Shown: positions 942 through 59,576 of the stretch, one piece after another
Layout of the letters: each line of letters begins with the position of its first letter
Numbering within the stretch: position 1 is the stretch's first letter
Origin: a virus
Strand: one strand, 5' to 3'
Virus record (IMG/VR): IMGVR_UViG_3300045988_178550
Location: 1-59,576 of that record
DNA: 59,576 nucleotides
Position numbers and translations under genes: made by a program
The notes under the pieces: generated by a model
Database searches by the model: none
The model's input: the letters and a program-made list of their open reading frames with translations, nothing else
What the model was told of the DNA's origin: nothing

Positions 942-960
942 GGTGCCTACTCCTTTAATA

Positions 961-1203: not shown

Positions 1204-1217
1204 TTTTCAGTCACTCC

Positions 1218-2309
1218 TTAAGCAACTTTAATTACATATACATCGGACATTCTTTCAAAGGAAGGAAGTACGATTTCAGAAACAACAGTAACAACATTTA
1301 CCGGATGAGGTTCTTTGTAAGTGGTAACTGCAACACCAGTATTTACAATAGAAACACTAGCATCAGTGTTACCAGTCATCAAATCAAATTCTTCCGGAGT
1401 AGTGCCATACCAAGTATTTCCGAGGGAATAACCAGGAAGCAACGTTACATAGTTGTCAGGATAGAATTTAGTGTCAACCTGTTCTTCATTTTTGAACATC
1501 TTATCATAAGTCATAATAGTAAGGCCAGTTTCCGTTTCAACATAAGCTTTAGCCTGTGCTGTAGTAAGGATGATGCTAGATGCACCCAACGGATTCATTG
1601 CCTTTTTAATAGATTCAGACAACAGCATATTTTTCAAAGTTGCCGTATTCATCAAAGCTCTGGTAACCGTTACACCATATTTTTCAGCCATATATTCTTT
1701 GGCTTCAAGCAATGTTTCAATCGGATTATTAGTTGCCGCATTTGCTTTAGTCCAAGTATCAGTACCAGACAAAGCCAGATTGTTATTAGATGCCCAAGTA
1801 CCATCAACATCATAGTTGTAGTTATAGGTAACATCACGACCAGAATCAACAGAAGCAGTGATATTAATTTTGCCTTGATACAACAAAGACATAATCATTC
1901 GTTCCGGCTGAATATTTGCACCATCAATCAAACCTGCAGTATCATCATACAATCTTTGAATAATAGGTGCAGCAAACTGGTCACCAGCAGCCAAATAAGT
2001 CTGAATGTCCTGACGATCTTTTTCACCGATTCGCATTGCTTCACGGAAGAACGGCATTTCAGTTTCAATTTTGGTAACACCAATACGATCTCTCAAAGGA
2101 GCTTTAGTATCGAATGCTGCCGGCTGCAATGCAACAGGTAAATTATTTACACCACGAATCCACGCAAGGTCCAAACCGGTCCTTTTAGCAGATGGGAATA
2201 AAGAACCACCAATATAAGGGTCATTCATGTGAGAATTGACATCAGTCCAATACATTGCTAATGCTTTAGCATCGAACATTTGCCAAATTTTTTCTTTAAC
2301 AGTAGCCAT
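1218..2309 (-). CDS. major capsid protein (phage capsid E-like family)
   Basis: 363 aa; N-terminal LDLAWIRGVNNLPVALQPAAFDTKAPLRDRIGV pattern typical of capsid-E family; follows scaffold and decoration genes. Confidence 0.85.
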   Translation of the reverse strand: MATVKEKIWQMFDAKALAMYWTDVNSHMNDPYIGGSLFPSAKRTGLDLAWIRGVNNLPVALQPAAFDTKAPLRDRIGVTKIETEMPFFREAMRIGEKDRQDIQTYLAAGDQFAAPIIQRLYDDTAGLIDGANIQPERMIMSLLYQGKINITASVDSGRDVTYNYNYDVDGTWASNNNLALSGTDTWTKANAATNNPIETLLEAKEYMAEKYGVTVTRALMNTATLKNMLLSESIKKAMNPLGASSIILTTAQAKAYVETETGLTIMTYDKMFKNEEQVDTKFYPDNYVTLLPGYSLGNTWYGTTPEEFDLMTGNTDASVSIVNTGVAVTTYKEPHPVNVVTVVSEIVLPSFERMSDVYVIKVA

Positions 2310-2330
2310 CTATTTCACTCCTATTCTTTA

Positions 2331-2744
2331 CTATTCAATAAATGCTTGACTTAAATCCAATTGTAGTTCCATTCCATTGTCTGTTTTAATATCAACTTTA
2401 GTATTCAACAGACTTTGTTTAGTTTGTCCGCACCAAACAAGCCCCAATTTATCAGAATCCATATCAACCCATTCAATTTTAGCTGCATTTTTCATCTGAA
2501 CTTTAGAAGCTCCTGCAGGTACATCAACCTTAAACGGAACATAATAGCCATTTTGTTCTTCAACAACTTGACTATTGAATGCAGTGAATCCTGTTACAAA
2601 TTTGAATGTACCATTGACTTTACCACCAGGGGTAATGTGCAAATTGTCAACAAAATCAGTAACATTTTTCCCAAGCAAATCATCAACACTAGTTGGTGCC
2701 GTTGCTACCAATTCAACTACATCATTATCTGTATTCAGTATCAT
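2331..2744 (-). CDS. hypothetical head-associated structural protein
   Basis: 137 aa; GKVNGTFKFVTGFTAFNS...GYYVPFKV pattern seen in small head-module proteins of Firmicute phages; position. Confidence 0.45.
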   Translation of the reverse strand: MILNTDNDVVELVATAPTSVDDLLGKNVTDFVDNLHITPGGKVNGTFKFVTGFTAFNSQVVEEQNGYYVPFKVDVPAGASKVQMKNAAKIEWVDMDSDKLGLVWCGQTKQSLLNTKVDIKTDNGMELQLDLSQAFIE

Positions 2745-3085
2745 ACCGTTTTTTTTAGGACGCTAATTTGTTTAAGTGCAGTAACTGCTTCTTCTTCCAA
2801 GTCTACAGGCAACTTTTCTTCAAGTACAAAACCATGAATCAAAATAGCCATATTAACATCACCATCAGTAACATCATAATCCTGGAAAACCAAGCCAATT
2901 GCAGTAGCATCATTTGCAGGATATGGTGTACCAGCTTTTACAACAAAACGTCCATTTTCCTGAGTAACAATTCCAGAAGCTGCGGAAGCCTGTGCCTGTT
3001 TGCGACCAATGCAAACATAATGGTCAGGAATTGCTAAAATGGTTTTGCTGTTATAAAACTCCCATTGTTTAGCTTTCATCGTCAT
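2741..3085 (-). CDS. putative head decoration-like protein
   Basis: 114 aa; AIGLVFQDYDVTDGDVNMAILIHGFV motif resembles decoration/DUF2190-type proteins; lies between scaffold and capsid. Confidence 0.4.
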   Translation of the reverse strand: MTMKAKQWEFYNSKTILAIPDHYVCIGRKQAQASAASGIVTQENGRFVVKAGTPYPANDATAIGLVFQDYDVTDGDVNMAILIHGFVLEEKLPVDLEEEAVTALKQISVLKKTV

Positions 3086-3105
3086 AATTCATGTTCCTCC
3101 CATCA

Positions 3106-3756
3106 TTACTTTTTGTCGGTACTAATGCCCATCATTTTCAATTTATTTGCAGCAAAAGCAGCGCCAATAGCTTCCGGAGTATCTTTCTTGTTATTTTTGT
3201 CTCCTTCTTGTGGTTTTGTACCGGAAAGAAAGAATTTGCCAAATACTCCACTGTTTTGCGAATTGTCATCATTATCATCATTGCTTTTTGCTTTGAATAA
3301 AAATGCTTTATTCTTCTGTAAATCTTTTAACTGTTCATTAAGGCCAGTGATTTTACCATCTTTATCAATTGTTACTTTTTCTTTATCAATCAAACCTACA
3401 ACCATATCAAGGTCCTGAACAGCACTTTCAAAATTCATTACACCGAACTTAATAGCACTTTCTTTTTTCTGGGCATTCAAATTCTTTTCATAATCTTCAT
3501 CTTTTGTTTTTAATTCTTTATTTAATTCATCAACCTTAGCCTGAAGTTCAGTAGCTGTTCCTTCAAAAGTTTTTAACTTTTTAATTGTTTCGTCTCTGTC
3601 CTTCACTTTTTGTTTTTCAGATTCAAGTTCATTTTTCACATTATCATGTTCAGATTTCAAAACGTAATTTTCCATTTTCTTCTTTTGGCTTTCAAGAATG
3701 TTAGAAATTACTTCATCCGTAAGACCAAAACCTTTAAGTTCTTCTTTTGTGAACAT
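3106..3756 (-). CDS. scaffolding protein
   Basis: 216 aa, highly charged coiled-coil (K/E-rich), immediately upstream of capsid genes. Confidence 0.7.
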   Translation of the reverse strand: MFTKEELKGFGLTDEVISNILESQKKKMENYVLKSEHDNVKNELESEKQKVKDRDETIKKLKTFEGTATELQAKVDELNKELKTKDEDYEKNLNAQKKESAIKFGVMNFESAVQDLDMVVGLIDKEKVTIDKDGKITGLNEQLKDLQKNKAFLFKAKSNDDNDDNSQNSGVFGKFFLSGTKPQEGDKNNKKDTPEAIGAAFAANKLKMMGISTDKK

Positions 3757-3803
3757 TTTCCATTCTCCTTTTTAAATTCAATATTCTCTGATAAACGAGA
3801 TTA

Positions 3804-3872
3804 CCCTCAGAGACATTTTTATAGCAGCTGAATATATCTTTAATATATCCAACAGCAAAATTCATCTGAGGG
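3804..3872 (-). promoter_or_regulatory. long imperfect hairpin in the 5' leader of the scaffold/capsid operon
   Basis: CCCTCAGA (3804-3811) pairs with TCTGAGGG (3865-3872); inner GGATATAT/ATATATTC stem; lies between the promoter at 3901-3929 and the ATG at 3756. Confidence 0.5.
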
Positions 3873-3900
3873 AAAATCCAGTCTATATATTTATATATAT

Positions 3901-3929
3901 ATTATAACACAAAACATAAAAATTGTAAA
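3901..3929 (-). promoter_or_regulatory. sigma70-type promoter (TTTACA-N17-TATAAT, TGn extended -10)
   Basis: Minus strand: TTTACA at 3929-3924, 17-nt spacer, TGTTATAAT ending at 3901. Confidence 0.6.
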
Positions 3930-3932
3930 TAG

Positions 3933-4268
3933 TTATTTGAATTGTTTATTAACTTTTGTAGCCATTTCCTTAGATTGTCCTTTATCAAAATCATATTGAT
4001 TCCGAAGAACATATCCCTCTAATGTACCAGCTTTTCTATTGTCAATTGAAATTAGTGGGTCATTCAAAATATCAGTTAATAATGCCATTAAATAATCTGA
4101 CTTATCTTTATTTTCAAACCAATAAGGATTCCACTTAATTAACTCTTCCAATTCACCTTTAACTATTTTTTCTTGTTTCCTATCAATCAAATAATATTGA
4201 TTATCAGTTGTCAAAATAACAAAAACAATATTATCAATATTTGTACAAACAATTCTTTTAATTTTCAT
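3933..4268 (-). CDS. hypothetical protein
   Basis: 111-aa ORF overlapping the stop of the giant polyvalent gene by 4 nt. Confidence 0.55.
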   Translation of the reverse strand: MKIKRIVCTNIDNIVFVILTTDNQYYLIDRKQEKIVKGELEELIKWNPYWFENKDKSDYLMALLTDILNDPLISIDNRKAGTLEGYVLRNQYDFDKGQSKEMATKVNKQFK

Positions 4269-7200
4269 ATCTCTTGGATTACCTCCTTTTTAGAATCAAC
4301 CAAATAACATTTAATCCCTCGTTCTTTTAACATTGCAATTATTTTTCTAACTTCAGGATTATTAACATTCGTTGTTTTCTTATTGAATGTTACTGACTCA
4401 ACATCATCAATTGTAAGATTACCATGATATTGAAGTTCAATATATTTTTGCCTTGTTAATGCTTGAATATCCAAATAACTTTTTTCAGCATTAGCATTTT
4501 CAACAACATTCAAACCATATATAACTTCATTTACATGCCCCCTTTGAATTGAAGCAATTTGAGGGTTAACAACAGGACTTGAACGAACATCATCATGCAT
4601 ACAATTGAACAAGCTATCACCAATTGTGAATGTAGTTCTATGCATTAAATTTCGTTTCTTAAATCTAACAATTGTATCACCATAGTCACCTGTAAAGTTT
4701 TCATCATCCTTAAAATCATCCTTAGGATTTTTAGAACCAAGAAAACCATACTTTTCATATTCACTACCTTCAGCATCTTCTGGAATTGTAAACATCTTTT
4801 TAGCAACTGCACGCCTTTGATTGAATGTTAAACCCAAAGGAGCACTTCCTGTTTCAAATTGGTTCATGAATTTACTTTGTGCAATCAATGGCAAAACATT
4901 CTTATTTAACCTCATGCAAAAATCATTTTTCTCAAACATATCCAACATTGTTTGATGAAAGTATTTTTCATTATTTTTACTGATTCTTTCATCTTTTCTC
5001 AAACTTTCATTTTGTGTTTCAGCCTTCTTCATTGTGCCTTTATAATACTTAAACTCCTTTAAAGCTTTTCTTCGTAATTCATTAAAATCATAAGTGTCTT
5101 TCCTTTCAAGTGCTTTTATTTCTTCAGAAGTTAAAGTATGTGGACCAACTTTAACACCTTTAGAAGCTTTTTTAGGAGCAGCTTGTTCAATAAGCTCTTG
5201 TGAACGTTTAATAAATTTACTATTATAACTTTTAACTAATTTATCAACATCATCATATTCACTTTCTTTCAACTCACCAATGAACCTTCGACTAAAGTCA
5301 TTAACATACTCATTATAAATTTGATATCTAATTTTTTCTAAAACAAAGCTTTTTGCAACAACATCAGAATTTTTTACATTCTCCATTTCAAAAAGCCAAT
5401 CTTCCAAATCAGAAAAAATTAAATCTGTTTGCACTTTCGTTCCATCTTTTCTTTTATATAATACAAATTCATGCAGTTCATCATTATCATACAATTTATA
5501 CATTTTCTTATATAGTTCATCATAAGTTCTATTGAAAGCATTTTCATACACGTCATCATCATCAACTGCTTCTTTGATATAATTTTCAAAATTAGATAAA
5601 ATGTTTAAATCACTAAAAACATCATCATCTAATAACATTCTATCTACAATAAATCGTATTGCATCATCATTTGACTTTCCATCATTAACAGCTTTCTTAA
5701 TATTATTAATTGTTGTTTTATCATATGTCGGCATTTGTTGTTTGACATTATCACTAATTTTTTGTTTTGTTTGTTTAATATCAATAATTTTCCTTTCCTT
5801 TTTCTTTTTTATTTCCGCTTCATTACTTTTATCAACATCCTGAACAACTAAACAACTTCTATCAATAATATTGTAATAAATCTCACTTTCACCATCCTTA
5901 TGAGCTTGAATTACATGATATCCTAATGAACGAGCAAAAGAAGATGGGTCACCAACATTATATCCTTTGTCCCTATATTCACTCATCAATTTCTGCAAAT
6001 CATCCCACAATATTTTCTTTGTTCCACTCTTAAAAGTAGCTTGTATCATGTACTTCCTATCAATTGCTGTTTCCTTACTTCCACTAAATTTACCATAACT
6101 GCCATGTGTAGGCTGAGTAGAAAAATACAACCCATCACCATAATCACCATCACCAATGTATTGCTGGCTTCCATACATTAAATCATTCAAAATACCACGT
6201 CTTAAGTATTTACCCCTTGTAACTCCACCAACCATACCAGTAGGACCAGCATCAGTTACTGCACGATATAAAACAGGTAAATCTTTATTATCAGCAATAT
6301 AAGCTTGAAAGTCCTGTTTTGACATTGTTTCAGGTTTATCATTTAACCCCATAACTTTAACATATTTTTGATAACTACTTTTTTCATTCAATATATCATA
6401 TTCATCATTTAACATTTCATAGTACTTATGTAAATTACCTATAATATCATTATAATCTTTAGCGGATAAAATATTAGCAGTTTTGTCAGAGTTTAATTCT
6501 TTTCTAATATTATTGATTTTAGTCATTGTTTCATTAACTTTTTCTTGCAATTGTTGCCTTGAGTCAAATTTTTCGCCATTTATAAAATCATCAAAACCTT
6601 TTAAACTACCATTAACAATAGCATAAGACCCTTTTATTGTGTCATAAAACAACACATTCAATTGCTCTTTATTTATTATATATTCATTAATTTTTGGTTT
6701 AAGTAATTTTGGGTCCCAAGATAAATCATTTCCATCAACATCAGCCAAATATTTTATTTTGAATGTTTTTCTGTCAAGTAATGGTCGCCCAATATCATAT
6801 ATAAATTGTGCTTTTTGTTTATCATCTAATTCAAGAAAAAAATCAGCTAATGCATTTGTATATTCATTACGTGTAATTTTCTGAGTTTGATATTTAGATG
6901 TTAAAACATCCAATTTTGCATATACACCACTTTTATCAAGTGGATCAGAAATATTTTTAAATTTAACTACATTATTTTCTATCAAATCTGGTAAATTGAT
7001 AAATATATTAATATTTCCATCTTTATCAATAAGTTTATCACTAAACAAATCCAAAAAAATACTTTGTTTTCGTTCATCAATATACCGTATTAAACCATTA
7101 TTTGACCTTAACCCTTTAACTATATTATCAACAACTATATTAAAATTTTCATGCCCCATGTCTCTTAATGCTTTTGGCAATTTTTCATTATTCATCGACC

Positions 7201-8674
7201 TATATGCATTAAAAATAGATTCAACAGATAAATAGAGACGCCTATTGCCAGCTAAACTTTGCATTAAATTTGGCCTATCAACTGTAAAAACACCACCAAA
7301 CCTATATTCCCCATCTTTAAAAGCACTTTCAGCATCGCCAATAAGTGGAATATTGTATATAGCTTCACCATAATCAGAATTATTTTTAAAAGCCCTTTCT
7401 GCATCAAAAATTAAATCATATGCCTGATTCCCGCCAAAAATATCAATCAATTCATTGATTTCTTCTTCACTATAATTACTAATATCATGGTCAACAACAA
7501 AATCAGAATCTTTATATACAACCCTATCCTCCTGTAATGCTTTCAACTTCCTACGTTCATCAACAATACGTTCATAAGCTAATACTTTTTCAGGCTCATA
7601 ATTCCAATCAGTCTTATCACTATTAGCATATAATCCTTGAGCATGTTTTGTACACCATTCCCTGTACGACATATTTGCAGGGACCATATAGGTTTTACCT
7701 TGTTCATCCCTTGCGACCCTCTCAGATGGATTGTATTCATCTAAGTCCTCAAAATATGGAATGGTTGTACTCCTACAGTTATAATGTAAAGGAGGTTGGT
7801 TAACAAAAGGAGCTGCTTCATTCAATTTAAACCTTTTACCATCCATAGCCCTACATTTATCAGAAGTCCTTCCGTCCAAAGTTGCTACAAACTCAAATTC
7901 ATCAACCATTTCACAATTATTATATGCTAATATGCTTGCTTGATTAGTTATTAAAGTAGTTAATGTTCGCATATCCCTTTTAGCAGCATTTTCAGACATA
8001 TTGAATTGTTTAGCAATAGCTTTACCAAATTCATCAGCATTTTTACCTTGAATAAATAACTGCGGAATAATTTGTTCAATGTTATTGGTCAACCTATCTA
8101 ATGTGTAACCGGTCCTATCAGTAAAAGTAGCTCCTAACCATTCAACATTAGAAGCTGTTTTAATTACCCTTGCTGATGGCATATTAAAATTTACACCCAT
8201 GCCAACAGTTTTTTGAATATTAAACATTGTATGGCCAAACCCATCTTTATACATTAAACTGCCAACATCAATCATTTCATCTTTAGCTTTAATTCCAACT
8301 TCAGCAGCCTGTTTAGTACAATTAACCAATAATTGTTCCAACCTACTTACTTTTGTTTTAGCAGCAATTTCATCTAACTTCTTTTGGGTCCTTACACCAA
8401 TGTTCTTTTTGCTTAATAATTGTTTATATTGTTCAGCTAAATCCTTAACATTTTCAGAATCACTTAAACTTAATTTTTGTTTTGCTACTTGTAAATCAAT
8501 TTTATTATTAGTAGCATATTTTTCATAAAAATCATCTAATTCCTTTTGTAATTCATCAATGGCAGATTGGTAAGCAGTTCGCATTCTTTTCTCCATTAAC
8601 AAACAACTTTGTTCATTATATACTTGAATAGCCAACCCATTATTCATTTGAGTTGCTTTACTTACATCTGCCAT
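4265..8674 (-). CDS. polyvalent minor head protein: SPP1 gp7/Mu F morphogenesis domain fused to an ADP-ribosyltransferase-like domain and a long unknown C-terminus
   Basis: 1469 aa. MuF motif FVATLDGRTSDKCRAMDGKRF...PPLHYNCRST. R-S-ExE triad: VLYRAV (Arg 6263-6265), LYFSTQ (6113-6121), GESEIYY (5882-5890). Follows portal. Confidence 0.8.
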   Translation of the reverse strand: MADVSKATQMNNGLAIQVYNEQSCLLMEKRMRTAYQSAIDELQKELDDFYEKYATNNKIDLQVAKQKLSLSDSENVKDLAEQYKQLLSKKNIGVRTQKKLDEIAAKTKVSRLEQLLVNCTKQAAEVGIKAKDEMIDVGSLMYKDGFGHTMFNIQKTVGMGVNFNMPSARVIKTASNVEWLGATFTDRTGYTLDRLTNNIEQIIPQLFIQGKNADEFGKAIAKQFNMSENAAKRDMRTLTTLITNQASILAYNNCEMVDEFEFVATLDGRTSDKCRAMDGKRFKLNEAAPFVNQPPLHYNCRSTTIPYFEDLDEYNPSERVARDEQGKTYMVPANMSYREWCTKHAQGLYANSDKTDWNYEPEKVLAYERIVDERRKLKALQEDRVVYKDSDFVVDHDISNYSEEEINELIDIFGGNQAYDLIFDAERAFKNNSDYGEAIYNIPLIGDAESAFKDGEYRFGGVFTVDRPNLMQSLAGNRRLYLSVESIFNAYRSMNNEKLPKALRDMGHENFNIVVDNIVKGLRSNNGLIRYIDERKQSIFLDLFSDKLIDKDGNINIFINLPDLIENNVVKFKNISDPLDKSGVYAKLDVLTSKYQTQKITRNEYTNALADFFLELDDKQKAQFIYDIGRPLLDRKTFKIKYLADVDGNDLSWDPKLLKPKINEYIINKEQLNVLFYDTIKGSYAIVNGSLKGFDDFINGEKFDSRQQLQEKVNETMTKINNIRKELNSDKTANILSAKDYNDIIGNLHKYYEMLNDEYDILNEKSSYQKYVKVMGLNDKPETMSKQDFQAYIADNKDLPVLYRAVTDAGPTGMVGGVTRGKYLRRGILNDLMYGSQQYIGDGDYGDGLYFSTQPTHGSYGKFSGSKETAIDRKYMIQATFKSGTKKILWDDLQKLMSEYRDKGYNVGDPSSFARSLGYHVIQAHKDGESEIYYNIIDRSCLVVQDVDKSNEAEIKKKKERKIIDIKQTKQKISDNVKQQMPTYDKTTINNIKKAVNDGKSNDDAIRFIVDRMLLDDDVFSDLNILSNFENYIKEAVDDDDVYENAFNRTYDELYKKMYKLYDNDELHEFVLYKRKDGTKVQTDLIFSDLEDWLFEMENVKNSDVVAKSFVLEKIRYQIYNEYVNDFSRRFIGELKESEYDDVDKLVKSYNSKFIKRSQELIEQAAPKKASKGVKVGPHTLTSEEIKALERKDTYDFNELRRKALKEFKYYKGTMKKAETQNESLRKDERISKNNEKYFHQTMLDMFEKNDFCMRLNKNVLPLIAQSKFMNQFETGSAPLGLTFNQRRAVAKKMFTIPEDAEGSEYEKYGFLGSKNPKDDFKDDENFTGDYGDTIVRFKKRNLMHRTTFTIGDSLFNCMHDDVRSSPVVNPQIASIQRGHVNEVIYGLNVVENANAEKSYLDIQALTRQKYIELQYHGNLTIDDVESVTFNKKTTNVNNPEVRKIIAMLKERGIKCYLVDSKKEVIQEI

Positions 8675-24809: not shown

Positions 24810-25325
24810 TTAGAAGTCATCCATGTCATCGTCTTCATCATCATCTTCAACTACCTTTTTAGCAGGTTTTTTAGCTTTAGCAGCTTTCTTTACCGGCTTT
24901 TTAGGAGCTTCTTCTTCTTCATCCTCATCATCAAAATCATCATCTTCGTCTTCATCTTCAACTACTGCTTTTTTAGCTTTAGCCTTTTTAGCAGGTTTTT
25001 TCGGAGCTTCATCCTCTTCTTCTTCATCATCTTCTTCTTCAGGTTCAGCAACCTTTTTAGCTTTAGCTTTTTTAGCAGGTTTTGCTTCTTCAGCTTCCTC
25101 AGCTTCAACTTCTTCAACATCATCTTCAGAAGCACCTGCATCTGCTTTCAAAGCTGCTTCAACTTTGCGAACAGAAATATAATCAGGAATTGCTGCAATG
25201 ATTTCATCTTCAGTTGCAGTTGCAAATAACGGGAATCGACGACCGATATCCATTCTTGCTTCCTTGTCACCACTTCTCAAAGCTTCATAAGCATCTGCTA
25301 CATTCCAATTTCTTGCCATTTTCAT
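24810..25325 (-). CDS. protein with alternating poly-acidic and KKPAKKAKAKK repeats
   Basis: 171 aa; globular N-terminus, then three acidic/lysine-alanine blocks; DNA shows repeated TTTTTTAGCTTTAGC units. Confidence 0.6.
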   Translation of the reverse strand: MKMARNWNVADAYEALRSGDKEARMDIGRRFPLFATATEDEIIAAIPDYISVRKVEAALKADAGASEDDVEEVEAEEAEEAKPAKKAKAKKVAEPEEEDDEEEEDEAPKKPAKKAKAKKAVVEDEDEDDDFDDEDEEEEAPKKPVKKAAKAKKPAKKVVEDDDEDDDMDDF

Positions 25326-25420
25326 TTACCTCTTTCTTATTTTAAATTTGCTAACTTGGTGTGGGGTTGTGACCACCTACCTGCCAGCATTAACGGGGAA
25401 TTTGTCCCCGCCACTCTGCT

Positions 25421-25663
25421 TTATTCTACTTCAATTGCTTTTACTGAGAACCAAAAACCTCTAAAAGTTATTAACCTTTCATTTTTAACTCTCATGATAT
25501 TTTCGTAGTATTTATCAGCAATTTCAACATCAATTGTATCTGCTGGTTGTTTTACTTCCATTATAGCCATTAAAGCTTCAGTTGCCTCAAATACTGAATG
25601 GCAAACCTTTTCAAATTTAACTCCATTAACTTCAACCTTGACTAATAATGCTTTCATAACCAA
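25421..25663 (-). CDS. hypothetical protein
   Basis: 80-aa ORF downstream of the promoter at 25707-25735. Confidence 0.5.
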   Translation of the reverse strand: MVMKALLVKVEVNGVKFEKVCHSVFEATEALMAIMEVKQPADTIDVEIADKYYENIMRVKNERLITFRGFWFSVKAIEVE

Positions 25664-26486: not shown

Positions 26487-26983
26487 TTTCTTTCTCTCCT
26501 TTTTTTAAACACATCACTTAATGTTGATGGTTTTTGTTTTTGATTGTTTTGTATTTTTGATTCTTCTATAATTTCATCAACCGTTAATTTCCCTTTACCT
26601 TTTATTTTTGTAATAGGTTTTTGTTTATGTTTTACAATTTCTATAGGTTTTGCTTTTTCAAACTCCTGCCCTTTTAAATACTTTGATAAATTTTCAAGTT
26701 CTGCAGGAACAGTAGCAATAAGCATTGGCCCATCAACAAATTGTACAACAAAAATAGGAATTTTTCTATCAACAGTTGCATGATATAAAAGCTTTTCAAC
26801 ATCTAATCGTTTAAATGATACTTGATTAGATTCTGTGCTTTTTAATTGGCAAATTATATCATCATTATATCCATCTTCTTTTAATATTTCTCCTGCACCA
26901 CTTCTTGGTGTAGATTTTAGTCCAAGTTTTTCAATTACTTTTCTTTCATTTGCATACCAGAATTTTGAAGTCCTACGTTTCAC
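26468..26983 (-). CDS. PD-(D/E)xK nuclease, Hjc-like Holliday junction resolvase-like
   Basis: NERKVIEKLGL..TPRSGAG...DDIICQLKST layout resembles archaeal-type resolvases. Confidence 0.45.
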   Translation of the reverse strand: MKRRTSKFWYANERKVIEKLGLKSTPRSGAGEILKEDGYNDDIICQLKSTESNQVSFKRLDVEKLLYHATVDRKIPIFVVQFVDGPMLIATVPAELENLSKYLKGQEFEKAKPIEIVKHKQKPITKIKGKGKLTVDEIIEESKIQNNQKQKPSTLSDVFKKRRERKWMKRN

Positions 26984-27524
26984 GATTCAAAATTGCTCCT
27001 TGTTTAAGTGGATATAATGAAATACAAATTGCATCAGCCATATCATCATTGCCTTCAACATCAAAATCAAATTCATTTTTAATAAATTCAATTGTTTCTA
27101 ACTTTTTATTTGACGTTTTATGTTTTGATGTTCCAACAACTTTTGACTTCCAGCTCCTTGTATCAACAGAATAAACAGGAATGTCAAAAGTAAAAGCTAT
27201 ATCAACAATAGAAGCAATTAGAGCACCAGTTGCTGATATATAACTTTTTGAAATAAATCCTTGTGAAAATGTTCTAATTTTCTCACAAATTATAATTTTA
27301 GGATGATAATTTAAAATCAAACTTTTTACAACTTTTTTCACAGCATTACGTTTTTCTGTTTTTGTTTTCATTTTTTTAAAATCTATACTATCAGCATATA
27401 ATAATTTCCCATTTTCCGTTACCGCAATACCTGTTCTTGTATAACTTTCATCAATTCCAATTATAGGATATTGCAATGCATTTTTAATATATTCTAATTC
27501 TTCTTTATTTTTAATTTTAGCCAT
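26973..27524 (-). CDS. RuvC-like crossover junction endonuclease
   Basis: IIGIDESYTRTGIAV N-terminal catalytic Asp/Glu and C-terminal DDMADAICISL. Confidence 0.65.
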   Translation of the reverse strand: MAKIKNKEELEYIKNALQYPIIGIDESYTRTGIAVTENGKLLYADSIDFKKMKTKTEKRNAVKKVVKSLILNYHPKIIICEKIRTFSQGFISKSYISATGALIASIVDIAFTFDIPVYSVDTRSWKSKVVGTSKHKTSNKKLETIEFIKNEFDFDVEGNDDMADAICISLYPLKQGAILNRET

Positions 27525-27967: not shown

Positions 27968-28750
27968 TTATAATTTTTCTTTCCTAATTCCAAAACATGT
28001 ATCTGACATTGGACAATCCTGTGCCCTTTTGCATGTTAAACTTCCACATTTGCGTTTCACCAGTTTTCCCTCTGATAAAAGTTTGTCCTTATATGTGGAT
28101 ATTTTATATAACCTTTCCAAATAGGGCCTTACAACATTAAAGTCATAATCATAGGCCAATATTTTTATCTCCTGTGTATTTTTGTCTTCACATAAAACGA
28201 ATCCTTGAGGTATACAAGTAAAATGCATATATAATTGTAATTGTTTTGTCCCTTTTGGATGAGTATCTTTTAAATGTTTAAATGCAAAAGTATTCATTGA
28301 CTTAATTTCACAAACATAAAACTTACCATTAATTTTAACAATTGCATCAGGAGTCATATATAAATCCAATGATTTTGAATAGCCCCTATCTTCAATTGCT
28401 ACAGCAATTCCTGCATTCTTAAACATCCTCTGCCATTTTTCATGAATTGCTTCACCTTCACGAAATATTCTTGCTAAGCTTACCGACATTTCTTCCTTTT
28501 CAGCCTTATTCCTTTTGTATACTAAACTAAGGACCTGTTCCCTATAACAAAAATTATTTTCACTATCAATGATTGCTGAAGCATGTAAACCTTTTCTGTC
28601 TTCATCCTCTTTTGACTTAACAAAAAATAATGAATTTAATTTATTTTCAAGCATTAAAGATAATGTAGATGATGGTTCAACTTTAATCCTGCTCCTTTTT
28701 ACTGCATCTGCAATCGCTGCACTTTTATTCATCATCTTCATCCTCCTCAA
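27968..28750 (-). CDS. Cas4/RecB-family PD-(D/E)xK exonuclease
   Basis: YVCEIKS core, one N-terminal Cys and a C-terminal CGSLTCKRAQDCPMSDTC cluster (4-Cys Fe-S layout). Confidence 0.65.
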   Translation of the reverse strand: MRRMKMMNKSAAIADAVKRSRIKVEPSSTLSLMLENKLNSLFFVKSKEDEDRKGLHASAIIDSENNFCYREQVLSLVYKRNKAEKEEMSVSLARIFREGEAIHEKWQRMFKNAGIAVAIEDRGYSKSLDLYMTPDAIVKINGKFYVCEIKSMNTFAFKHLKDTHPKGTKQLQLYMHFTCIPQGFVLCEDKNTQEIKILAYDYDFNVVRPYLERLYKISTYKDKLLSEGKLVKRKCGSLTCKRAQDCPMSDTCFGIRKEKL

Positions 28751-29666
28751 CTTCTGCTCTTAGCCTTTTTAGCTCCTGATTCCTTTGCTTCATAATTTCT
28801 TTTCTAATTTGTGGAACATCATCAACAGGGACAAATCCCCTATCAAAAACAATTGCCAATGTACATTCCCCTAAAGGATTGCAAACTTTACTTTTTATAA
28901 CTTTTACCTTCATAATCATACCAATAATTTCTTTTGCTGCTGAGTTCGCAGGATTCTTATTCGGTACTTCAATCCAACTCATTCTATTCACTTGCAACCT
29001 AATTGAAGCAAAATGTTTTAATGCCCTACCACCAGGTGTATGAGTTTGAGGACCAAATAATCCTGCCTTCATTTCATCTCTCAATTGATTGATAAAAATT
29101 ACTGTTGTTCCAGATTGCTCACATAATGTTACAAGTTTTGGAAGTTTTGCAGCTAATAATGCAGCAATTCTGCCACGTTGGCCTTCCTTCTCCATGTCAT
29201 CTTCTTCGAATTCTTTCCTCGTTATCATTGAAGGAACAGAATCTATAACAACCAATGGAACATTTGCTTTTGATACTTCTTGGATTGTTTCCATGCATTG
29301 TTCTCCATATTCACATCTACGAATAAACAACTGCCCCTTTTTATTTCCAAATATTTTAGCCCTTTTAGCATCAAATGTCCCTTCAATAGGAATATCAACA
29401 GCAACTTCATGTTGAGCAAGTAAATGATATGCCAATGTAGTTTTTCCTGCGGATTCAGGCCCAAACAATTCAATAAACCTGCCATAGGGAATTCCACCAC
29501 CAAGTATATTGTCTAAATCTTCTAATCCTGTAGACCATCTATCAACAACAAAAGTTGACTTTTCAGAATCCAATGAAAAAATGCTTCCAACACCATATTC
29601 CTTTTCAAATGCTTTTAATGTTGCTACTAATTTCTTTTTATCGATAGCTTTAGCCATCATTAACAC
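28725..29666 (-). CDS. RecA-family recombinase
   Basis: GGIPYGRFIELFGPESAGKTTLA Walker A, VVIDSV Walker B, TTVIFINQLR. Confidence 0.8.
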   Translation of the reverse strand: MLMMAKAIDKKKLVATLKAFEKEYGVGSIFSLDSEKSTFVVDRWSTGLEDLDNILGGGIPYGRFIELFGPESAGKTTLAYHLLAQHEVAVDIPIEGTFDAKRAKIFGNKKGQLFIRRCEYGEQCMETIQEVSKANVPLVVIDSVPSMITRKEFEEDDMEKEGQRGRIAALLAAKLPKLVTLCEQSGTTVIFINQLRDEMKAGLFGPQTHTPGGRALKHFASIRLQVNRMSWIEVPNKNPANSAAKEIIGMIMKVKVIKSKVCNPLGECTLAIVFDRGFVPVDDVPQIRKEIMKQRNQELKRLRAEVEEDEDDE

Positions 29667-43201: not shown

Positions 43202-43230
43202 ATTATAATACATTATTTTTATTTTGTCAA
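43202..43230 (-). promoter_or_regulatory. perfect consensus sigma70 promoter (TTGACA-N17-TATAAT)
   Basis: Minus strand TTGACA at 43230-43225, 17-nt spacer, TATAAT at 43207-43202; leader to the holin ATG would be only about 8-10 nt. Confidence 0.55.
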
Positions 43231-43232
43231 AC

Positions 43233-43267
43233 CACCATAGGAGCTAGCTTAGAGGCTAGTATTCCTA
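43233..43267. repeat. left arm of a perfect 35-bp inverted repeat
   Basis: CACCATAGGAGCTAGCTTAGAGGCTAGTATTCCTA; the exact reverse complement is at 43952-43986. Confidence 0.95.
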
Positions 43268-43623
43268 CGACTGAAACATATTTAGTCAATATCAATGAAG
43301 ATTACACCACAGTAAACGAAACGAGAACAGTTCATATTCCATCAGGCGTTAAAGTATTAAAAGTAAGAGTCTATTCCGAAAGTGGTGCAGGTGGAGATGA
43401 TTTCTGTGCTGCATATGTTCAAAATGCCGACAATAAGAAAGTTTGGGTAATTGCTGAAAACTATGGTTCTTGTGATGAAACTAAATATGTCGGCGTAACA
43501 GGCGGGAAAGATTATAAATTAAATTTATATGCTGGCACTGAATATGATACAATGGCAGCATTAATACGAATTTCATATTCACAGTCGATTAATAATACAA
43601 CTCCCCGTGTAACAGATTATTAG
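43233..43623 (+). other. start-less (silent) paralog cassette D, inverted relative to all other genes
   Basis: Encodes TIGASLEASIPTTETYLVN...ISYSQSINNTTPRVTDY but lacks the MALTDNPM head, SD and ATG; the upstream part of track ORF 43114.. is antisense to holin. Confidence 0.8.
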
Positions 43624-44033
43624 TAATCTGTAACTTCTACTGCGTGTGAATTGATAGTAGGCGACCATTCGAGTTTAAAATTCAACTTAGTGTAATCAGT
43701 ATTAACATCTAAATTGCCTATAGTATAATCAATCCAATATTTATTATTGTTAGCATTATACAACAAGTATTCTTCACCTTCTCCATAATTATATTCAGTC
43801 CAATTAGAATACAATTTATAGGATTTATTGGGTGTTACACCTACATACGTAATCAAACTTAAATATCCAGATTGATTAAATGAAGCCCTTAATACTGTTA
43901 TTCCTGCGGGAACTGTAAAGGTACTGCCATGTGCTAAAGTAACTTCCCCACTAGGAATACTAGCCTCTAAGCTAGCTCCTATGGTGACATTGCCTGTCAC
44001 GATAATTGACATTGGATTATCAGTTAAAGCCAT
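43620..44033 (-). CDS. cassette-family protein C (expressed copy at the invertible locus)
   Basis: MALTDNPMSIIVTGNVTIGASLEASIP head, divergent body, VTDY end; stop overlaps the stop of cassette D. Confidence 0.7.
   Translation of the reverse strand: MALTDNPMSIIVTGNVTIGASLEASIPSGEVTLAHGSTFTVPAGITVLRASFNQSGYLSLITYVGVTPNKSYKLYSNWTEYNYGEGEEYLLYNANNNKYWIDYTIGNLDVNTDYTKLNFKLEWSPTINSHAVEVTDY
43952..43986. repeat. right arm of the perfect 35-bp inverted repeat
   Basis: TAGGAATACTAGCCTCTAAGCTAGCTCCTATGGTG on the plus strand. Confidence 0.95.
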
Positions 44034-44054
44034 AATATACGGCAGATTTTGAGT

Positions 44055-44474
44055 TTAGTAATCGGTTACTTTAGGCGTTTGATTGTTAATTGATTGTGAA
44101 TAACTAATAGTTACACTTCCTGACTCTGTGCCAGTTTCGCTATCAGTTGATAACTTTAATGTATAACTTTTATTAGGAGTAACTCCTACATACCAAATAT
44201 CATAGGCGGATTCGTAATCCCATAAAGATAACCAATATTTTTTGCCATTTACTGAATATACATCTAAAGCTACTTCGCCTTCGTGTTCATGGTATACATC
44301 ACCCTCTACTTTTAATACTTTTACACCCGCAGGCACTGTAATAGTAACCGTTGTATTCACATCCATAGTACTCAACAATCTTGTTTCAGTAGTCGGTACA
44401 CTTGCTTCTAATGTTGCCCCAACTGTTACATTGCCTGTAACCACTAAACTCATAGGATTGTCTGTCAAAGCCAT
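44055..44474 (-). CDS. cassette-family protein B
   Basis: Start at ATG 44474 (GGAGGAAAAAG SD): MALTDNPMSLVVTGNVTVGATLEASVP...ISYSQSINNQTPKVTDY. Confidence 0.7.
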   Translation of the reverse strand: MALTDNPMSLVVTGNVTVGATLEASVPTTETRLLSTMDVNTTVTITVPAGVKVLKVEGDVYHEHEGEVALDVYSVNGKKYWLSLWDYESAYDIWYVGVTPNKSYTLKLSTDSETGTESGSVTISYSQSINNQTPKVTDY

Positions 44475-44509
44475 CTTTTTCCTCCGATTTCTCACAGAGG
44501 AATATTACA

Positions 44510-44989
44510 TTAATAATCAGTTACGTTAGGTATTTTTTGATTAATTGATTGAGAATAAGAAATCTTTAAATACCCTCCACCCAAATTATATTCTGCGCCT
44601 ACGTATAACGATAATTTATAAGTTTTGTTTGGTGTTACTCCGACATACCATTGATCATAGAAATTAAAACCCTCTGATCTATAACGCCACTCTTTTTGAT
44701 TAGAAAGGTTTTTTATTTCTACAGTAACGTAATCATCATAACCCTCGCTAGATTCTGCATGACTGGAAATATATAATACAGTAACTCCATCAGGAATAGT
44801 TATTGATACTTCCTCATACAAGATGTCATTTGCTTCAATATTTTTGTTGATCAAGAAAGTTTCTTCTGTAGGCACAATAACTTCTAATTCTGCACTAACC
44901 GTAATATTCCCTGTGACTGTAATATTCATAGGATTATCAGTTAGTGCGTGTAATTGTAATAGTAATCTCGGAAGACGGCTGACAGACAA
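44510..44989 (-). CDS. cassette-family protein A; start ambiguous (TTG 44989, or ATG 45033 after a +1 change in the G tract)
   Basis: ..LHALTDNPMNITVTGNITVSAELEVIVP...ISYSQSINQKIPNVTDY; the family ATG position is CAC here. Confidence 0.6.
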   Translation of the reverse strand: MSVSRLPRLLLQLHALTDNPMNITVTGNITVSAELEVIVPTEETFLINKNIEANDILYEEVSITIPDGVTVLYISSHAESSEGYDDYVTVEIKNLSNQKEWRYRSEGFNFYDQWYVGVTPNKTYKLSLYVGAEYNLGGGYLKISYSQSINQKIPNVTDY

Positions 44990-45004
44990 TTCTTTATCTG
45001 CCTG

Positions 45005-45014
45005 CCCCCCCCCC
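45005..45014. repeat. C10/G10 homopolymer
   Basis: Ten consecutive C on the plus strand, counted directly; longest G/C run seen in this AT-rich genome. Confidence 0.95.
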
Positions 45015-45034
45015 TAATTAATTTATTAAACATT

Positions 45035-45310
45035 TTATTCGTCCTCCTTATTTACATCAATTTTTTCTAAAAGCTCTCCATCTTTGTTATAACCAGTGAT
45101 TATAAGATTTTGACCTTTTTTAACTAAAATACTATAAGGTGAATTTGCTTTTACACTAAAAGAATATTCACCACTTGCAACAAAATCAAGATTCGCATAA
45201 CTGTCTAATGTGTTTGATAATTTAGCACATTTTTCATTTAGTTCTTTTTGCATATCTTCATATTCCGATTTTGTTTTCCCGCCTAATAATTTTATCAACC
45301 AATTAAACAT
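45035..45310 (-). CDS. hypothetical protein
   Basis: 91 aa; N-terminus MFNWLIKLLGGK resembles the MFNKLIRGGG leader of cassette A. Confidence 0.5.
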   Translation of the reverse strand: MFNWLIKLLGGKTKSEYEDMQKELNEKCAKLSNTLDSYANLDFVASGEYSFSVKANSPYSILVKKGQNLIITGYNKDGELLEKIDVNKEDE

Positions 45311-45914
45311 CTTCGTCCTCCTTTTCTAATACAGCTCCAATTTCAGCATCGCCATTTATTGCTAATGTATTTGCGCTTGCAGTTTGATAGCTTCCTGACA
45401 ATGTAAATGTCTTAAAGGTGTATCCACTATTCGGCGTACACAAATTGCTTGCAGTTTTGCCATGCTGAACAGTAAAGGTTGACGTATATGCAACACCATC
45501 AACTGTAACAGTAATCGTTCCACCTGTAGGCTGATTAATCGTATAAGTATAGGTTTTCAAGGTAGCGGCTGTTGCACTAATAGTGATATTATCTGTCAAT
45601 GTTCCACTTGTACTGCTTAATGTGCCTGCATTATAACCTGTACTTGCTGATATACTTGCCGTATAAGTTGACCCTGCTTCTGCTGTAAATGTTGATGTAT
45701 ATGAATTGCCATTGCAAATTACTGTTATTGTTTGATTTGCTGATTGTACGATTGTGACCGTTACTGTTACTTCGGACGTGTAACATAATCTTGCTACGCC
45801 ATTTACTCCTATATACATTTTTTTGACTTTTCTTGCCTTGCCGTCTACTCCAATGTATATATTCTTTGCTTTTCTTGCTTTACCATCTACACCTATATAA
45901 ATGCTTTTTGCCAT
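45303..45914 (-). CDS. fibre-associated protein with a triple N-terminal repeat and Thr-rich beta repeats
   Basis: KSIYIGVDGKARKAK / NIYIGVDGKARKVK / KMYIGVNGVARL, then YTSTFT-type repeats. Confidence 0.55.
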   Translation of the reverse strand: MAKSIYIGVDGKARKAKNIYIGVDGKARKVKKMYIGVNGVARLCYTSEVTVTVTIVQSANQTITVICNGNSYTSTFTAEAGSTYTASISASTGYNAGTLSSTSGTLTDNITISATAATLKTYTYTINQPTGGTITVTVDGVAYTSTFTVQHGKTASNLCTPNSGYTFKTFTLSGSYQTASANTLAINGDAEIGAVLEKEDEDV

Positions 45915-45926
45915 TTTCGCACCTCT

Positions 45927-47642
45927 TTATTCGTACACAATATAAAGTGTGCCTGTGGTTAATGCAGAGCTTCCAGCGGTTAAATCAGTTGTACTATAGG
46001 TATATGCAGGTGCACATCCTAATGCAGTCCTTGCGGCGGCGGCTGTTGTTGCACCTGTTCCTCCGTTGGCGATTGGTAATGTGCCAGTAACTCCGACTGT
46101 TATATTTGCCGAGCCGTCAAAGCTACCAGCAGTGCTACTTGCAAGATTTGCTGTGATAGTCCTTGCAGTTGCTAGTTTTGTTGCTGTATTTGCATTACCT
46201 AACCATTTTGCAACACCATCATGTGTGACCGTTGCAAACAAATTATTATTGCTAGAAAAAGCTACTTTCGTATCATCGTCACGTATGACAAACACATTAT
46301 TATTCGTTCCAACTCTAAATACATGAGGTTGATTTGTGCTCGCGTGATAAAATAGTCCACCTAAATTATCTGTTCCAATTCTTGCTTGTACTGTTTCACC
46401 TGTCGGAGAAACACCAAAACTTACAGTACCACTGCTACCTGCCGCAGTTCCGTTAGATACGCCAATACTTGCCCTGAAAATATTTAATGCTGTATAGGTA
46501 TTTGCTTGATTTAATAAGCCTACTTCATCAGTACAAGCAATTTCTCGCCATGCAGTCCAACTACTATTTTCATGGTAAAAACAGCGTTGATACGTTCTTG
46601 AAACTACATAACTACTCCCATAAGTTCGATAAATCTGGACTAAACTTGTTCTAGGGGCATTAAATCCAATCAATACACTTAATACACCGCTCCTTAGCGT
46701 TGCATCATTATAGCTAGTGGGGAGATTTGCTATTGTGTTTGCTTCTATATTGCTTTGTACTTGATATTCTCCAGGAGTTTTGTAATCATTAAAATCGCTA
46801 TTTGAAGGGATAAAATTCGTTATGTTTAAATATTTAGCCGAATTTACATCTCCGTTAGCTATACTATCATCTACATATTTTTTATTCGATACATCAGTAT
46901 TTACTGTAGGAGTTTTGTTTACTGTCAATTCCAGTCCATTTGCATTAGTATATTTACCCCATGGAGTATTATTTAACGAGCTAAATTCTACTGTGCCATC
47001 AGAATTATATACACTAGCAAAAGATGTTTGAGCACCACTTCTTAAATAGCAAGGTCTATAATCAGCGGCATACATTATTAAATCGCCTTGTTTGTTTCTG
47101 GCTATGGAAGGTGTTTGTTTACTACCTTCAGGTTGTTTTCCGAGCCATAAATAAGTTGATACATCACCAGGAGTGGTAGCACTGCCCCGTATTGTTAAAT
47201 TTGTATTAAATATAGCACTACCATTCCAATAGTTATTGCCTGTCCATGTGTTATTGCCTGCTAATTTGCCATAGGTCGTATGAATATTATTGCCATTAAT
47301 ATCAGCTAATGCTTTTGTTGCTGTACCCGCTGCATATTCTTGAAATGCGTCCATTGTGCCTAATTTAGTATCATCTACGACTTGATATTGTACTGGAGGA
47401 GTAACTCCTATTATCATTACAGTATCGCCATTTTGAACATCATCAACAGTTAAAGCAAGCATATCTGTAACAGTATCAACCTTTATAACATTATCCAAGC
47501 CTGCTGGAGGAATATTAGAAATATCTAATTGTCCTTTTATACGAGTGGCATCAATATCACTGGTATTTACATAATCAATTAAACTATTTATATATTTGAT
47601 AAATGCCAGTCCGGATAATGTTTTCGTTATTTTCTCAAACAT
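45927..47642 (-). CDS. tail fibre protein
   Basis: 571 aa, Gly/Thr/Asn-rich, in the fibre block after the baseplate; higher GC. Confidence 0.65.
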   Translation of the reverse strand: MFEKITKTLSGLAFIKYINSLIDYVNTSDIDATRIKGQLDISNIPPAGLDNVIKVDTVTDMLALTVDDVQNGDTVMIIGVTPPVQYQVVDDTKLGTMDAFQEYAAGTATKALADINGNNIHTTYGKLAGNNTWTGNNYWNGSAIFNTNLTIRGSATTPGDVSTYLWLGKQPEGSKQTPSIARNKQGDLIMYAADYRPCYLRSGAQTSFASVYNSDGTVEFSSLNNTPWGKYTNANGLELTVNKTPTVNTDVSNKKYVDDSIANGDVNSAKYLNITNFIPSNSDFNDYKTPGEYQVQSNIEANTIANLPTSYNDATLRSGVLSVLIGFNAPRTSLVQIYRTYGSSYVVSRTYQRCFYHENSSWTAWREIACTDEVGLLNQANTYTALNIFRASIGVSNGTAAGSSGTVSFGVSPTGETVQARIGTDNLGGLFYHASTNQPHVFRVGTNNNVFVIRDDDTKVAFSSNNNLFATVTHDGVAKWLGNANTATKLATARTITANLASSTAGSFDGSANITVGVTGTLPIANGGTGATTAAAARTALGCAPAYTYSTTDLTAGSSALTTGTLYIVYE

Positions 47643-59141: not shown

Positions 59142-59566
59142 AGGCTTAACCTCTGTGTCCACTTCACAAAAGATTGTTTAAACCGTGGGGGAATCTCCCT
59201 ATTTATCTCAGCTAAACTTATCCTTGCCATGTGATATCCTTCAACATATTTTCCTTTATCGCCTTTTACCCTTTTTCCATCTTCGCCTCTACTCCATTTA
59301 TAAGCTTGATGTCCTTCTTCAACATAACTTGCATATTCAGCAGAATTTGTTAAATATATAACTAATTGGTTTCCATCCCTTTCAACATCAGAGACTTGCC
59401 AACTATTTCTTAAAAATCCTGTTCTTACTGGTGTTCTTTTTTTTGTTTTAGCTAATGCCCTTAATCCCATTTCCAACAAAAATTGATTCAAAAAATCTAA
59501 AAATTCTTGTTGCATTTTAAGAACATTTTCCACCATTTGAATTACACCATCACTAGTAAGACCCAT
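59138..59566 (-). CDS. HK97 gp10-family neck protein
   Basis: RTPVRTGFLRNSW motif of the gp10 family; start ATG 59566 lies in the terminal overlap next to gene 118..528 on the closed circle. Confidence 0.6.
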   Translation of the reverse strand: MGLTSDGVIQMVENVLKMQQEFLDFLNQFLLEMGLRALAKTKKRTPVRTGFLRNSWQVSDVERDGNQLVIYLTNSAEYASYVEEGHQAYKWSRGEDGKRVKGDKGKYVEGYHMARISLAEINREIPPRFKQSFVKWTQRLSL

Positions 59567-59576
59567 AATCAACACC
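59436..59576. repeat. terminal direct repeat, identical to 1..141
   Basis: Exact 141-bp match read directly. Confidence 0.9.

Follow-up and report, generated by a model that had tools for sequence, protein, structure and literature searches.

A gene-splicing inversion switch without an invertase in cis beside the tail-fibre genes of a contractile-tailed phage

How does a phage come to carry, inside the coding sequence of one gene, one arm of a perfect inverted repeat whose other arm leads into a second gene body that has no beginning of its own, and can such a segment turn over? The question is raised by IMG/VR virus record IMGVR_UViG_3300045988_178550, whose positions 1 to 59,576 (the whole stretch analysed here, 59,576 nucleotides, hereafter the window) hold a 754-bp segment in which two paralogous bodies, C and D, lie tail to tail between two 35-bp arms. 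A sequence-only reading of the window had predicted that inversion would join a short constant head in frame to body D and silence body C. Comparison with related phages reveals both arrangements, and we put the probability that the locus is a real, recurrently flipping gene-splicing inversion switch at roughly 90%. Its elements, with the two tandem paralogs beside it, are as follows.

43233 to 43267, plus strand: distal repeat arm, 35 bp; supplies the N-terminal junction TIGASLEASIP, in frame, for the silent cassette
43268 to 43951, no strand assigned: interior that changes orientation, 684 bp; bodies C and D tail to tail
43952 to 43986, minus strand: head-side arm of the inverted repeat, 35 bp; lies within expressed gene C and encodes residues 17-27
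43620 to 44033, minus strand: expressed gene C, 137 amino acids; 16-amino-acid constant head (43986-44033), arm peptide, variable body C
43234 to 43623, plus strand: silent cassette D, 129 codons and stop; without head, start codon or ribosome-binding site
44055 to 44474, minus strand: tandem paralog B, 139 amino acids from the ATG at 44474; own GGAGG ribosome-binding site
44510 to 45033, minus strand: tandem paralog A; A itself at 44510-44950, leader from the ATG at 45031-45033, out of frame in this genome

A repeat search of the window finds the arms where the sequence-only reading had placed them, 100% complementary over 35 nt and 684 nt apart. The arm sequence, CACCATAGGAGCTAGCTTAGAGGCTAGTATTCCTA, which can be read in blocks as CACCA-TAGGA-GCTAGC-TTAGAG-GCTAGT-AT-TCCTA, occurs at just these two places in the window when up to three mismatches are allowed, and has 0 matches in 100 shuffles. 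By open reading frame (ORF) translation, gene C reads MALTDNPMSIIVTGNV, followed by TIGASLEASIP and then by SGEVTLAHG...VTDY, and it has more than 300 close relatives; D reads from TIGASLEASIP directly into TTETYLVN...RVTDY, with its stop codon at 43621-43623. The ORF list agrees that the two bodies converge on stop codons that overlap at 43620-43623. All other credible genes of the window lie on the minus strand, which bears out the description of D as the headless, startless and sole plus-strand coding sequence; the only start upstream of it, an ATG at 43114 on the strand opposite to the holin gene, is spurious.

A fixed start, consisting of the ATG and the 16-amino-acid head, together with the 11-amino-acid junction encoded by the arm, is joined to whichever body adjoins the head-side arm. 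That body is C in this genome and becomes D after a flip, and in sister genomes the pair is C and E; the body not joined lies headless on the opposite strand.

Both orientations among related phages

The relatives comprise about 60 contigs, all from human-gut metagenomes, and the evidence on orientation consists of assembled contigs. The exact arm 35-mer is present in 15 IMG/VR contigs, and a 23-nt core of the arm in 32 further metagenome contigs. Two kinds of segment occur, one pairing C with D (arms 719 bp apart) and one pairing C with a third body, E (668 bp apart); a body resembling that of paralog A is also found attached to the same arm in the population. Counted as distinct segment sequences, the C/D pair has C expressed in 16 and D expressed in 4 that are complete (and 2 that are partial), and the C/E pair has C expressed in 6 and E in 7. 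The predicted joining of the head in frame to D, with C silent, is seen in L069 and L161, in L037 and L038 (where D stands behind an extended head) and in the partial contigs L036, L039 and L040. Some of these loci were located by searching for the head-plus-D protein; in unbiased, arm-based scans D is expressed in about 1/16 of C/D loci. The fusion of head, arm and D is itself present in public assemblies as a 145-amino-acid protein (P0122, 98% identical).

Pairwise blastn alignments place the rearrangement on the segment itself. Between L017 and L037 the flanks are collinear at 98.9% and 754 nt are inverted at 97%; L036 aligns with the window collinearly at 99.6% and then in inverted orientation at 98.7%; and for L026 against L022, which likewise have collinear flanks and an inverted segment, the two alignments overlap by exactly the arm. 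The segment is inverted in L036, L069, L161 and L037/L038 relative to the window, L043 and L017, with collinear flanks. Flip isomers have collinear flanks, 97-99% identical, and their breakpoints coincide exactly with the arms; the cassette, which might have proved fixed in one orientation in related genomes, is present in both. Several flip pairs agree better within the inverted segment (99.2-99.9%) than in the flanks around it (92-98%), as in L059/L029 (99.86% against 96.9-98.4%) and L045/L044 (99.7% against 92-98%), indicating that the flips are recent and independent.

The three outer contexts (the head, flank 1 and flank 2) are found joined to the three bodies (C, D and E) in 9/9 possible combinations, always with the junction at the same nucleotide. 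The inner edge of the head-side arm is also the exact end of three contigs that come from different assemblies; since a de Bruijn unitig ends where both continuations are present, these ends point indirectly to mixed orientations within single samples.

It could be asked whether assemblers simply crossed a short inverted repeat in an arbitrary direction. A de Bruijn assembler can indeed be misled by an inverted repeat whose length is k or more, and among the flipped contigs are some short or thinly covered ones (L036, coverage 0.36; L161). However, the 35-bp arm is shorter than the usual final k, the 141-nt overlap of the window implying k = 141, and flipped loci occur in long contigs and from independent pipelines (MEGAHIT k141 for L037, 65.7 kb; SPAdes NODE contigs L041 and L045; IMG/VR). 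Single-nucleotide polymorphisms (SNPs) in the arms and subtypes of the flanks also track lineages consistently. An assembly artefact is therefore a very improbable source of the two orientations.

The inversions could also be real and yet serve no switching, if the headless body were the leftover of an old rearrangement and the two orientations came from a few rare chance inversions together with horizontal transfer of the module. Assembly of most long contigs does run through the segment without a break, in one orientation only, and the low share of D-expressed loci in the unbiased scans fits such a relic. Decayed or deleted versions of the locus exist as well: in L033 the locus is frozen, the two arms agreeing at only 19/35 positions, L048/L049 have lost the whole segment between the TAGGA pentamers of the two arms, and L068 and L072 carry deletions that run from the distal arm into paralog B (microhomology deletions in all four). 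Other lineages, for example L160, keep all of their paralogs tandem and expressed. Against this stand the silent body, which is an intact ORF in every complete locus among the relatives, the about equal frequency of the two C/E orientations, the multiple independent recent flips, the presence of all nine joint combinations, and the perfect arms, which are kept in most of about 50 contigs. Among the relatives, body D (43268-43620 in the window) has 9/13/29 variable sites of 118 at codon positions 1/2/3, a pattern that reads as ordinary purifying selection; in body C (43623-43951) the counts are 29/21/29 of 110 each, and variation as frequent at the first two positions as at the third suggests diversifying selection. 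We consider a relic without adaptive switching improbable, and continue with a switch that flips recurrently.

The search for a recombinase and the mechanism of inversion

What, then, turns the segment over? An exact 141-nt direct repeat lies at the two ends of the window (1-141 and 59436-59576), and in a contig of 59.5 kb that is nearly identical, the first gene of the window runs directly into the last; together these show the window to be a complete circular genome of about 59.4 kb. A Pfam scan of this genome at E <= 0.01, covering every minus-strand ORF of at least 50 amino acids, the four paralogs and the larger plus-strand ORFs, returned no match to Resolvase (PF00239), Recombinase, Phage_integrase, transposase or reverse transcriptase (RVT_1) profiles. 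The recombination proteins that it found are these two only.

28725 to 29666, minus strand: phage RecA homologue (Pfam RecA, E 3.2e-50); candidate catalyst of short-homology inversion
26973 to 27524, minus strand: RuvC-like/DUF3882 protein, putative Holliday-junction resolvase (weak Pfam matches: DUF3882, E 0.0013; RuvC, E 0.0066)

The earlier description of the segment as an orphan, with neither a serine nor a tyrosine recombinase in the genome, is thus upheld by profile searches, and wider searches agree with it. The relatives that have precomputed Pfam annotation contain no recombinase within 6-10 kb of the switch, whichever of the two backbone types they belong to, and there is none among the ORFs downstream of the switch in L011. 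The 30-bp site with a free spacer, which had been suggested as a lead to a recombinase gene elsewhere, has no match in 185,579 species-representative reference genomes, and a looser pattern of the site finds in IMG/VR only the same 15 contigs and none outside the lineage. The genome has many unannotated ORFs, and an unrecognisable novel enzyme may be among them. Explanations by a diversity-generating retroelement (DGR), a transposon or an integron were rejected, the window having no reverse transcriptase, transposase or integrase.

We favour a mechanism in which the crossover would take place within the 35-bp arms by general short-homology recombination in the pool of replicating phage DNA. 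The candidate agents would be the RecA and the RuvC-like resolvase of the phage acting together, or else a template switching at inverted repeats that does not need RecA; the rate of flipping would be low, and the available hosts would then select between the two isomers. To this proposal we give about an even chance, which places it ahead of a site-specific recombinase acting in trans. We favour it because no invertase is encoded, RecA is present, events at homology and microhomology are abundant at the locus, an SNP at arm position 24 (below) behaves in a way that does not suit a central crossover, and there is no lysogenic phase. No lysogeny genes were recognised in the complete genome and the phage looks non-temperate, so the flip would fall in lytic replication, when, from general phage biology, recombination-dependent processes dominate. 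The locus also combines the features of flip-flop inversion by homologous recombination, namely identical inverted repeats, both isomers, no site-specific recombinase, and general recombination functions at hand.

Other rearrangements, as read from the relatives' contigs, suggest that general recombination is active here. A deletion found in many contigs, in both orientations, fuses the leader and head of paralog A to the head of the invertible gene across a 12-nt identity, AACTGATAATCC, with loss of the A body and all of B, and chimeric bodies exist (e.g. P0142). A module of roughly 3.5 kb, stretching between the end of the tail-fibre gene and the distal arm (window about 43233-46900), is 97-100% identical to IMG/VR loci L001-L032, and the RecA, terminase and baseplate J of the window, used as anchors, are not shared by the contigs of these relatives. 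The same module on phages with different terminase, RecA and baseplate J indicates that it moves between backbones by recombination, and the cassette locus accordingly has the look of a mosaic, horizontally exchanged host-recognition module.

The principal competing explanation is that a serine or tyrosine invertase, supplied in trans by the host or a co-resident prophage, flips the segment during infection, each arm being a complete core site built of two imperfect inverted half-sites around an asymmetric spacer. The arm does have such a form, in that it is self-complementary around an asymmetric centre (GCTAGC-TTAGAG-GCTAGT within TAGGA...TCCTA), and as a single strand it folds into a hairpin of 12 pairs with a 2-nt bulge at -6.6 kcal/mol. 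An equally stable folding arises in only 1.7% of 5000 codon-usage-weighted synonymous recodings of TIGASLEASIP, p being about 0.02 in what was a post hoc test. The dyad symmetry of each arm is real but modest; of the earlier likening of the arm to a recombinase dimer site, the symmetry stands and the site itself is suggestive only.

Several observations weigh against general recombination and are more readily understood if a dedicated enzyme is at work. The 35 bp of identity are near the lower limit for RecA-type recombination, which is roughly 25-50 bp in E. coli and T4 systems, and are about the length of a recombinase core site (about 30 bp), in addition to being self-complementary beyond 98% (98.3%) of the synonymous recodings. 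The boundaries of the arms are sharp and identical in three flank contexts, remaining invariant through the nine context combinations, and several deletion variants have one end in or at an arm, so that their endpoints cluster there. Third codon positions in the arms are variable at 0/11 sites, compared with 25-26% in bodies C and D (p about 0.04 each). An enzyme in trans would also be in keeping with the retention of perfect arms in most contigs despite the lack of an enzyme in cis, and with a host that is probably a gut Bacillota member. There is precedent for action at a distance: the Pin invertase of e14 can flip the G segment of Mu, and in Clostridioides difficile the enzyme RecV serves many unlinked switches.

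The lack of synonymous variation bears as well on the suggestion that the 35/35 identity of the arms is actively maintained. That suggestion had rested on the tandem paralogs, which, as had been said, encode the same peptide with many synonymous differences: paralogs B and A carry a homologous N-terminal peptide and have only 74% nucleotide identity in the arm region. Across the relatives, nucleotide diversity (pi) is 0.003-0.011 in the arms and 0.033, 0.015 and 0.006 in bodies C, D and E, respectively, and the five variable arm positions are all non-synonymous transitions. Low diversity and invariant third positions speak for maintenance, but 35-nt windows inside the bodies have a median pi of 0.015-0.017 with a 5th percentile of 0-0.003, a range that includes that of the arms, and active maintenance is suggestive only.

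Two SNPs in the arms, where informative SNPs are few, bear on where the crossover falls. The SNP at position 2 stays with the distal flank whichever body adjoins (L059 versus L029 and L066). The SNP at position 24 is found in the head-side arm when C is expressed and also in L161 with D expressed, the distal arm being wild type; its staying with the head in L161 is not what a crossover confined to the central spacer would give, except if the same mutation arose more than once. An invertase in trans is further disfavoured by the absence of any candidate enzyme or second copy of the site in the searches of reference genomes and of IMG/VR outside the lineage, by the habit of canonical systems of keeping the invertase adjacent, and by the lack of a lysogeny module, which would leave a host enzyme a single latent period in which to act. 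Weighing these together, and bearing in mind the post hoc nature of the symmetry test, we hold the trans-acting invertase to be a serious possibility, with the odds nevertheless against it, and general short-homology recombination to be the better-placed of the two.

The paralog cluster, its protein family and the phage

Next to the inversion switch lies a second candidate for phase variation.

45005 to 45014, minus strand: poly-G tract in the leader of paralog A; G10 in this genome

The start codon of paralog A is replaced by CAC (His, 44948-44950), and A is translatable only from the ATG at 45031-45033, which overlaps the stop codon of the preceding gene, through the poly-G tract. Tract length in the relatives ranges from G7 to G11, with A in frame only at G8 or G11, and 7/7 single-copy variants driven by the A leader have G8. 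With seven or more identical bases in a row in the 5' coding region, and lengths that differ among close relatives so as to switch the frame, the tract is probably a case of slipped-strand phase variation, with A OFF in this genome; a homopolymer sequencing error is possible. Two in-frame tracts that are interrupted (L030, L072) look like locked-on alleles, and distant family members begin M-x-L-N-K-L-M-M-G-G-G-G, indicating that the glycine run is conserved. Hypermutable poly-G tracts in receptor-binding genes of Campylobacter phages were reportedly described by Sorensen et al. in 2021; the tract here is likewise frame-switching, and lies in a 5' coding leader, but it belongs to another host clade and protein family and shares its gene cluster with an inversion switch.

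The two switches invite a bolder version of the trans-acting enzyme, in which the arms would be a core site borrowed from the host, a phase-variation invertase of the host or a prophage would reset the receptor-binding state of the phage during infection, and site and poly-G tract together would form a two-switch, enzyme-free module for varying host range, passed horizontally among gut phages with unrelated backbones. Were this so, the enzyme that varies the host surface would also reset the phage's receptor-binding state. We regard it as unlikely, and return to a switch driven by general recombination as the preferred reading.

Another arrangement of the cluster occurs in L020 (3385-4620), where the third paralog position holds a 409-amino-acid body, with no Pfam match, fused directly after ...TIGASLE, and is followed by a C-like paralog with its own diverged head. 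L020 was considered as a partial-arm shufflon and rejected, the apparent second partial arm being the diverged head of another tandem paralog.

On either side of the cluster lie the following.

45035 to 47642, minus strand: upstream late genes; tail-fibre-like gene (45927-47642), 203-amino-acid repeat protein (45303-45914), 91-amino-acid protein (45035-45310)
43202 to 43230, minus strand: consensus sigma-70-type promoter of the holin/amidase genes; TTGACA-17-TATAAT, 12/12

The three genes upstream of the paralog cluster match tail-fibre and tail-collar PHROGs, and on different phage backbones this block accompanies the cassette locus; the N-terminus of the 203-amino-acid protein consists of three tandem 42-nt repeats (45789-45914, minus strand), encoding K-x-IYIGVDGKARK three times. 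On the other side, the holin/amidase promoter begins 3 nt outside the distal arm and limits the outward extension of the silent copy. A promoter-like site (TTAACA-16-TATAAT, 11/12) is also present antisense within body C, at 43702-43729 on the plus strand; it would face the lysis genes after a flip, and may be a chance occurrence in AT-rich DNA.

The remainder of the genome is that of a contractile-tailed phage, with Pfam matches to sheath, tube, an XkdN-like chaperone, a YqbQ-like protein, baseplate J, an SPP1-type portal and terminase, and, for replication and metabolism, to DNA polymerase III alpha, primase, RecA, ThyX and a thymidylate-synthase-like protein. Its sheath and terminase are 46-50% identical to counterparts in phages of Clostridium, Bacillus and Streptococcus, and from this likeness the host is probably a gut member of the Bacillota. 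A type-P5 twister ribozyme (50.8 bits, E 1.2e-7, above the Rfam gathering threshold) is present at 25361-25420 on the minus strand, in the intergenic gap between the genes at 25421-25663 and 24810-25325.

The exchanged proteins belong to a large family, which comprises about 308 clusters at 50% identity. Neither in Pfam nor in PHROGs is there a family that matches paralogs A-D; blastn of the locus and tblastn of protein C find no match among GenBank phages, and the protein pattern of the family has no relative in the 185,579 reference genomes. An AlphaFold model of C, of moderate quality (predicted local distance difference test, pLDDT, 68.8), is a beta-sandwich. Foldseek with this model returns nothing below E 0.2 from the PDB, and from BFVD one uncharacterised family member and weak matches to tail-fibre, baseplate and glycine-rich-domain proteins. 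In longer proteins the paralog domain is C-terminal to InlB-B-repeat or discoidin (F5/8 type C) domains. The most likely role of the C, D and E proteins is that of interchangeable tail parts for host recognition or adhesion; with a moderate model, no significant PDB neighbour and weak BFVD hints, a receptor-binding role is an inference.

Two distant lineages of the family, L159 and L160, were examined for an inverted cassette of their own with different arms, and both have tandem arrays only. L160, from another gut phage, carries at 79-7282 a DGR (an Mtd-like gene and a reverse transcriptase) followed by five tandem head-bearing genes on one strand, with no inverted cassette; 3/5 of these genes clearly match the family profile.

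Comparison with known systems

Inversion switches in tail genes have been textbook material since phage Mu, and to our knowledge the classic ones are all found in temperate phages of Proteobacteria that encode their own invertase. The present locus shares with Mu G/Gin, and likewise with P1-P7 C/Cin, e14 P/Pin and p15B Min, the splicing by inversion of a constant N-terminus to alternative C-termini that lie tail to tail within a tail-gene ORF. As in Mu, the switch sits at the end of the tail-fibre module and is bounded by short inverted repeats, which are 34 bp in the Mu G segment and 35 bp here. The differences are that a serine invertase is adjacent in these Din-type systems and none is present in cis here, that the constant part is only 27 amino acids in a protein of about 130-145 amino acids with no chaperone gene in the segment, that the protein family is unrelated, and that the phage looks non-temperate and Bacillota-infecting. 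In a by-eye comparison with the consensus, which makes for a weak test, the arm also lacks the AAACC/GGTTT half-sites of the 26-bp gix/hix/cix site. The model of the Mu G segment is summarised in bioRxiv 10.64898/2026.02.14.705889, and a catalogue of programmed gene-altering inversions includes tail-fibre genes and ranks recombinase/invertase families among the gene families associated with such inversions (PMC9881135).

The R64-type shufflon, in which Rci rearranges pilV, likewise exchanges adhesin-like C-terminal bodies at short repeats in coding sequence, and here too several alternative bodies (C, D, E and A-like) exist in the population; in contrast to the shufflon, each genome here has two arms and two bodies, without multiple sfx-like sites or an Rci-like gene. 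A DGR would need a reverse transcriptase and a pair of template and variable repeats, and the window has no RVT_1.

The nearest parallel to an inversion without a dedicated enzyme is found in Anabaena cyanophages, in which a region of roughly 30 kb is invertible between repeats of 400-700 bp, no dedicated recombinase has been identified and general recombination has been proposed (bioRxiv 10.64898/2026.02.14.705889). Both orientations occur there among close relatives without phylogenetic correlation, as here. However, the repeats of the present locus are ten to twenty times shorter and lie inside an ORF, so that inversion re-splices a gene and does not turn over a block of whole genes. At the other end of the range are trans-acting host invertases, such as C. 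difficile RecV and Bacteroides Mpi, which flip many unlinked switches; an enzyme of this type would account for a site with no enzyme nearby, but the reference genomes contain no matching site, and we know of no such invertase that acts on infecting phage DNA.

'Viral invertons' in metagenomes are only now being proposed, and we found no description of this paralog family or locus in the literature. The switch sits in a module that is widespread in human-gut phages (hundreds of protein clusters, dozens of contigs), and it affects how phage assemblies are read, given that contigs break or differ at the switch locus. If ordinary recombination drives the flip, 35 bp of identity would suffice for a heritable two-state switch in host recognition, and searches that depend on an invertase close by would overlook many orphan switches; if a host enzyme drives it, the locus would be an example of a phage that relies on the phase-variation machinery of its host. 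Under either mechanism it offers a locus, testable by polymerase chain reaction, for how gut phages follow variation of the host surface. Set beside these systems, the locus is a gene-splicing inversion switch of the Mu G-segment kind, without an invertase in cis, in a new protein family beside the tail-fibre genes.

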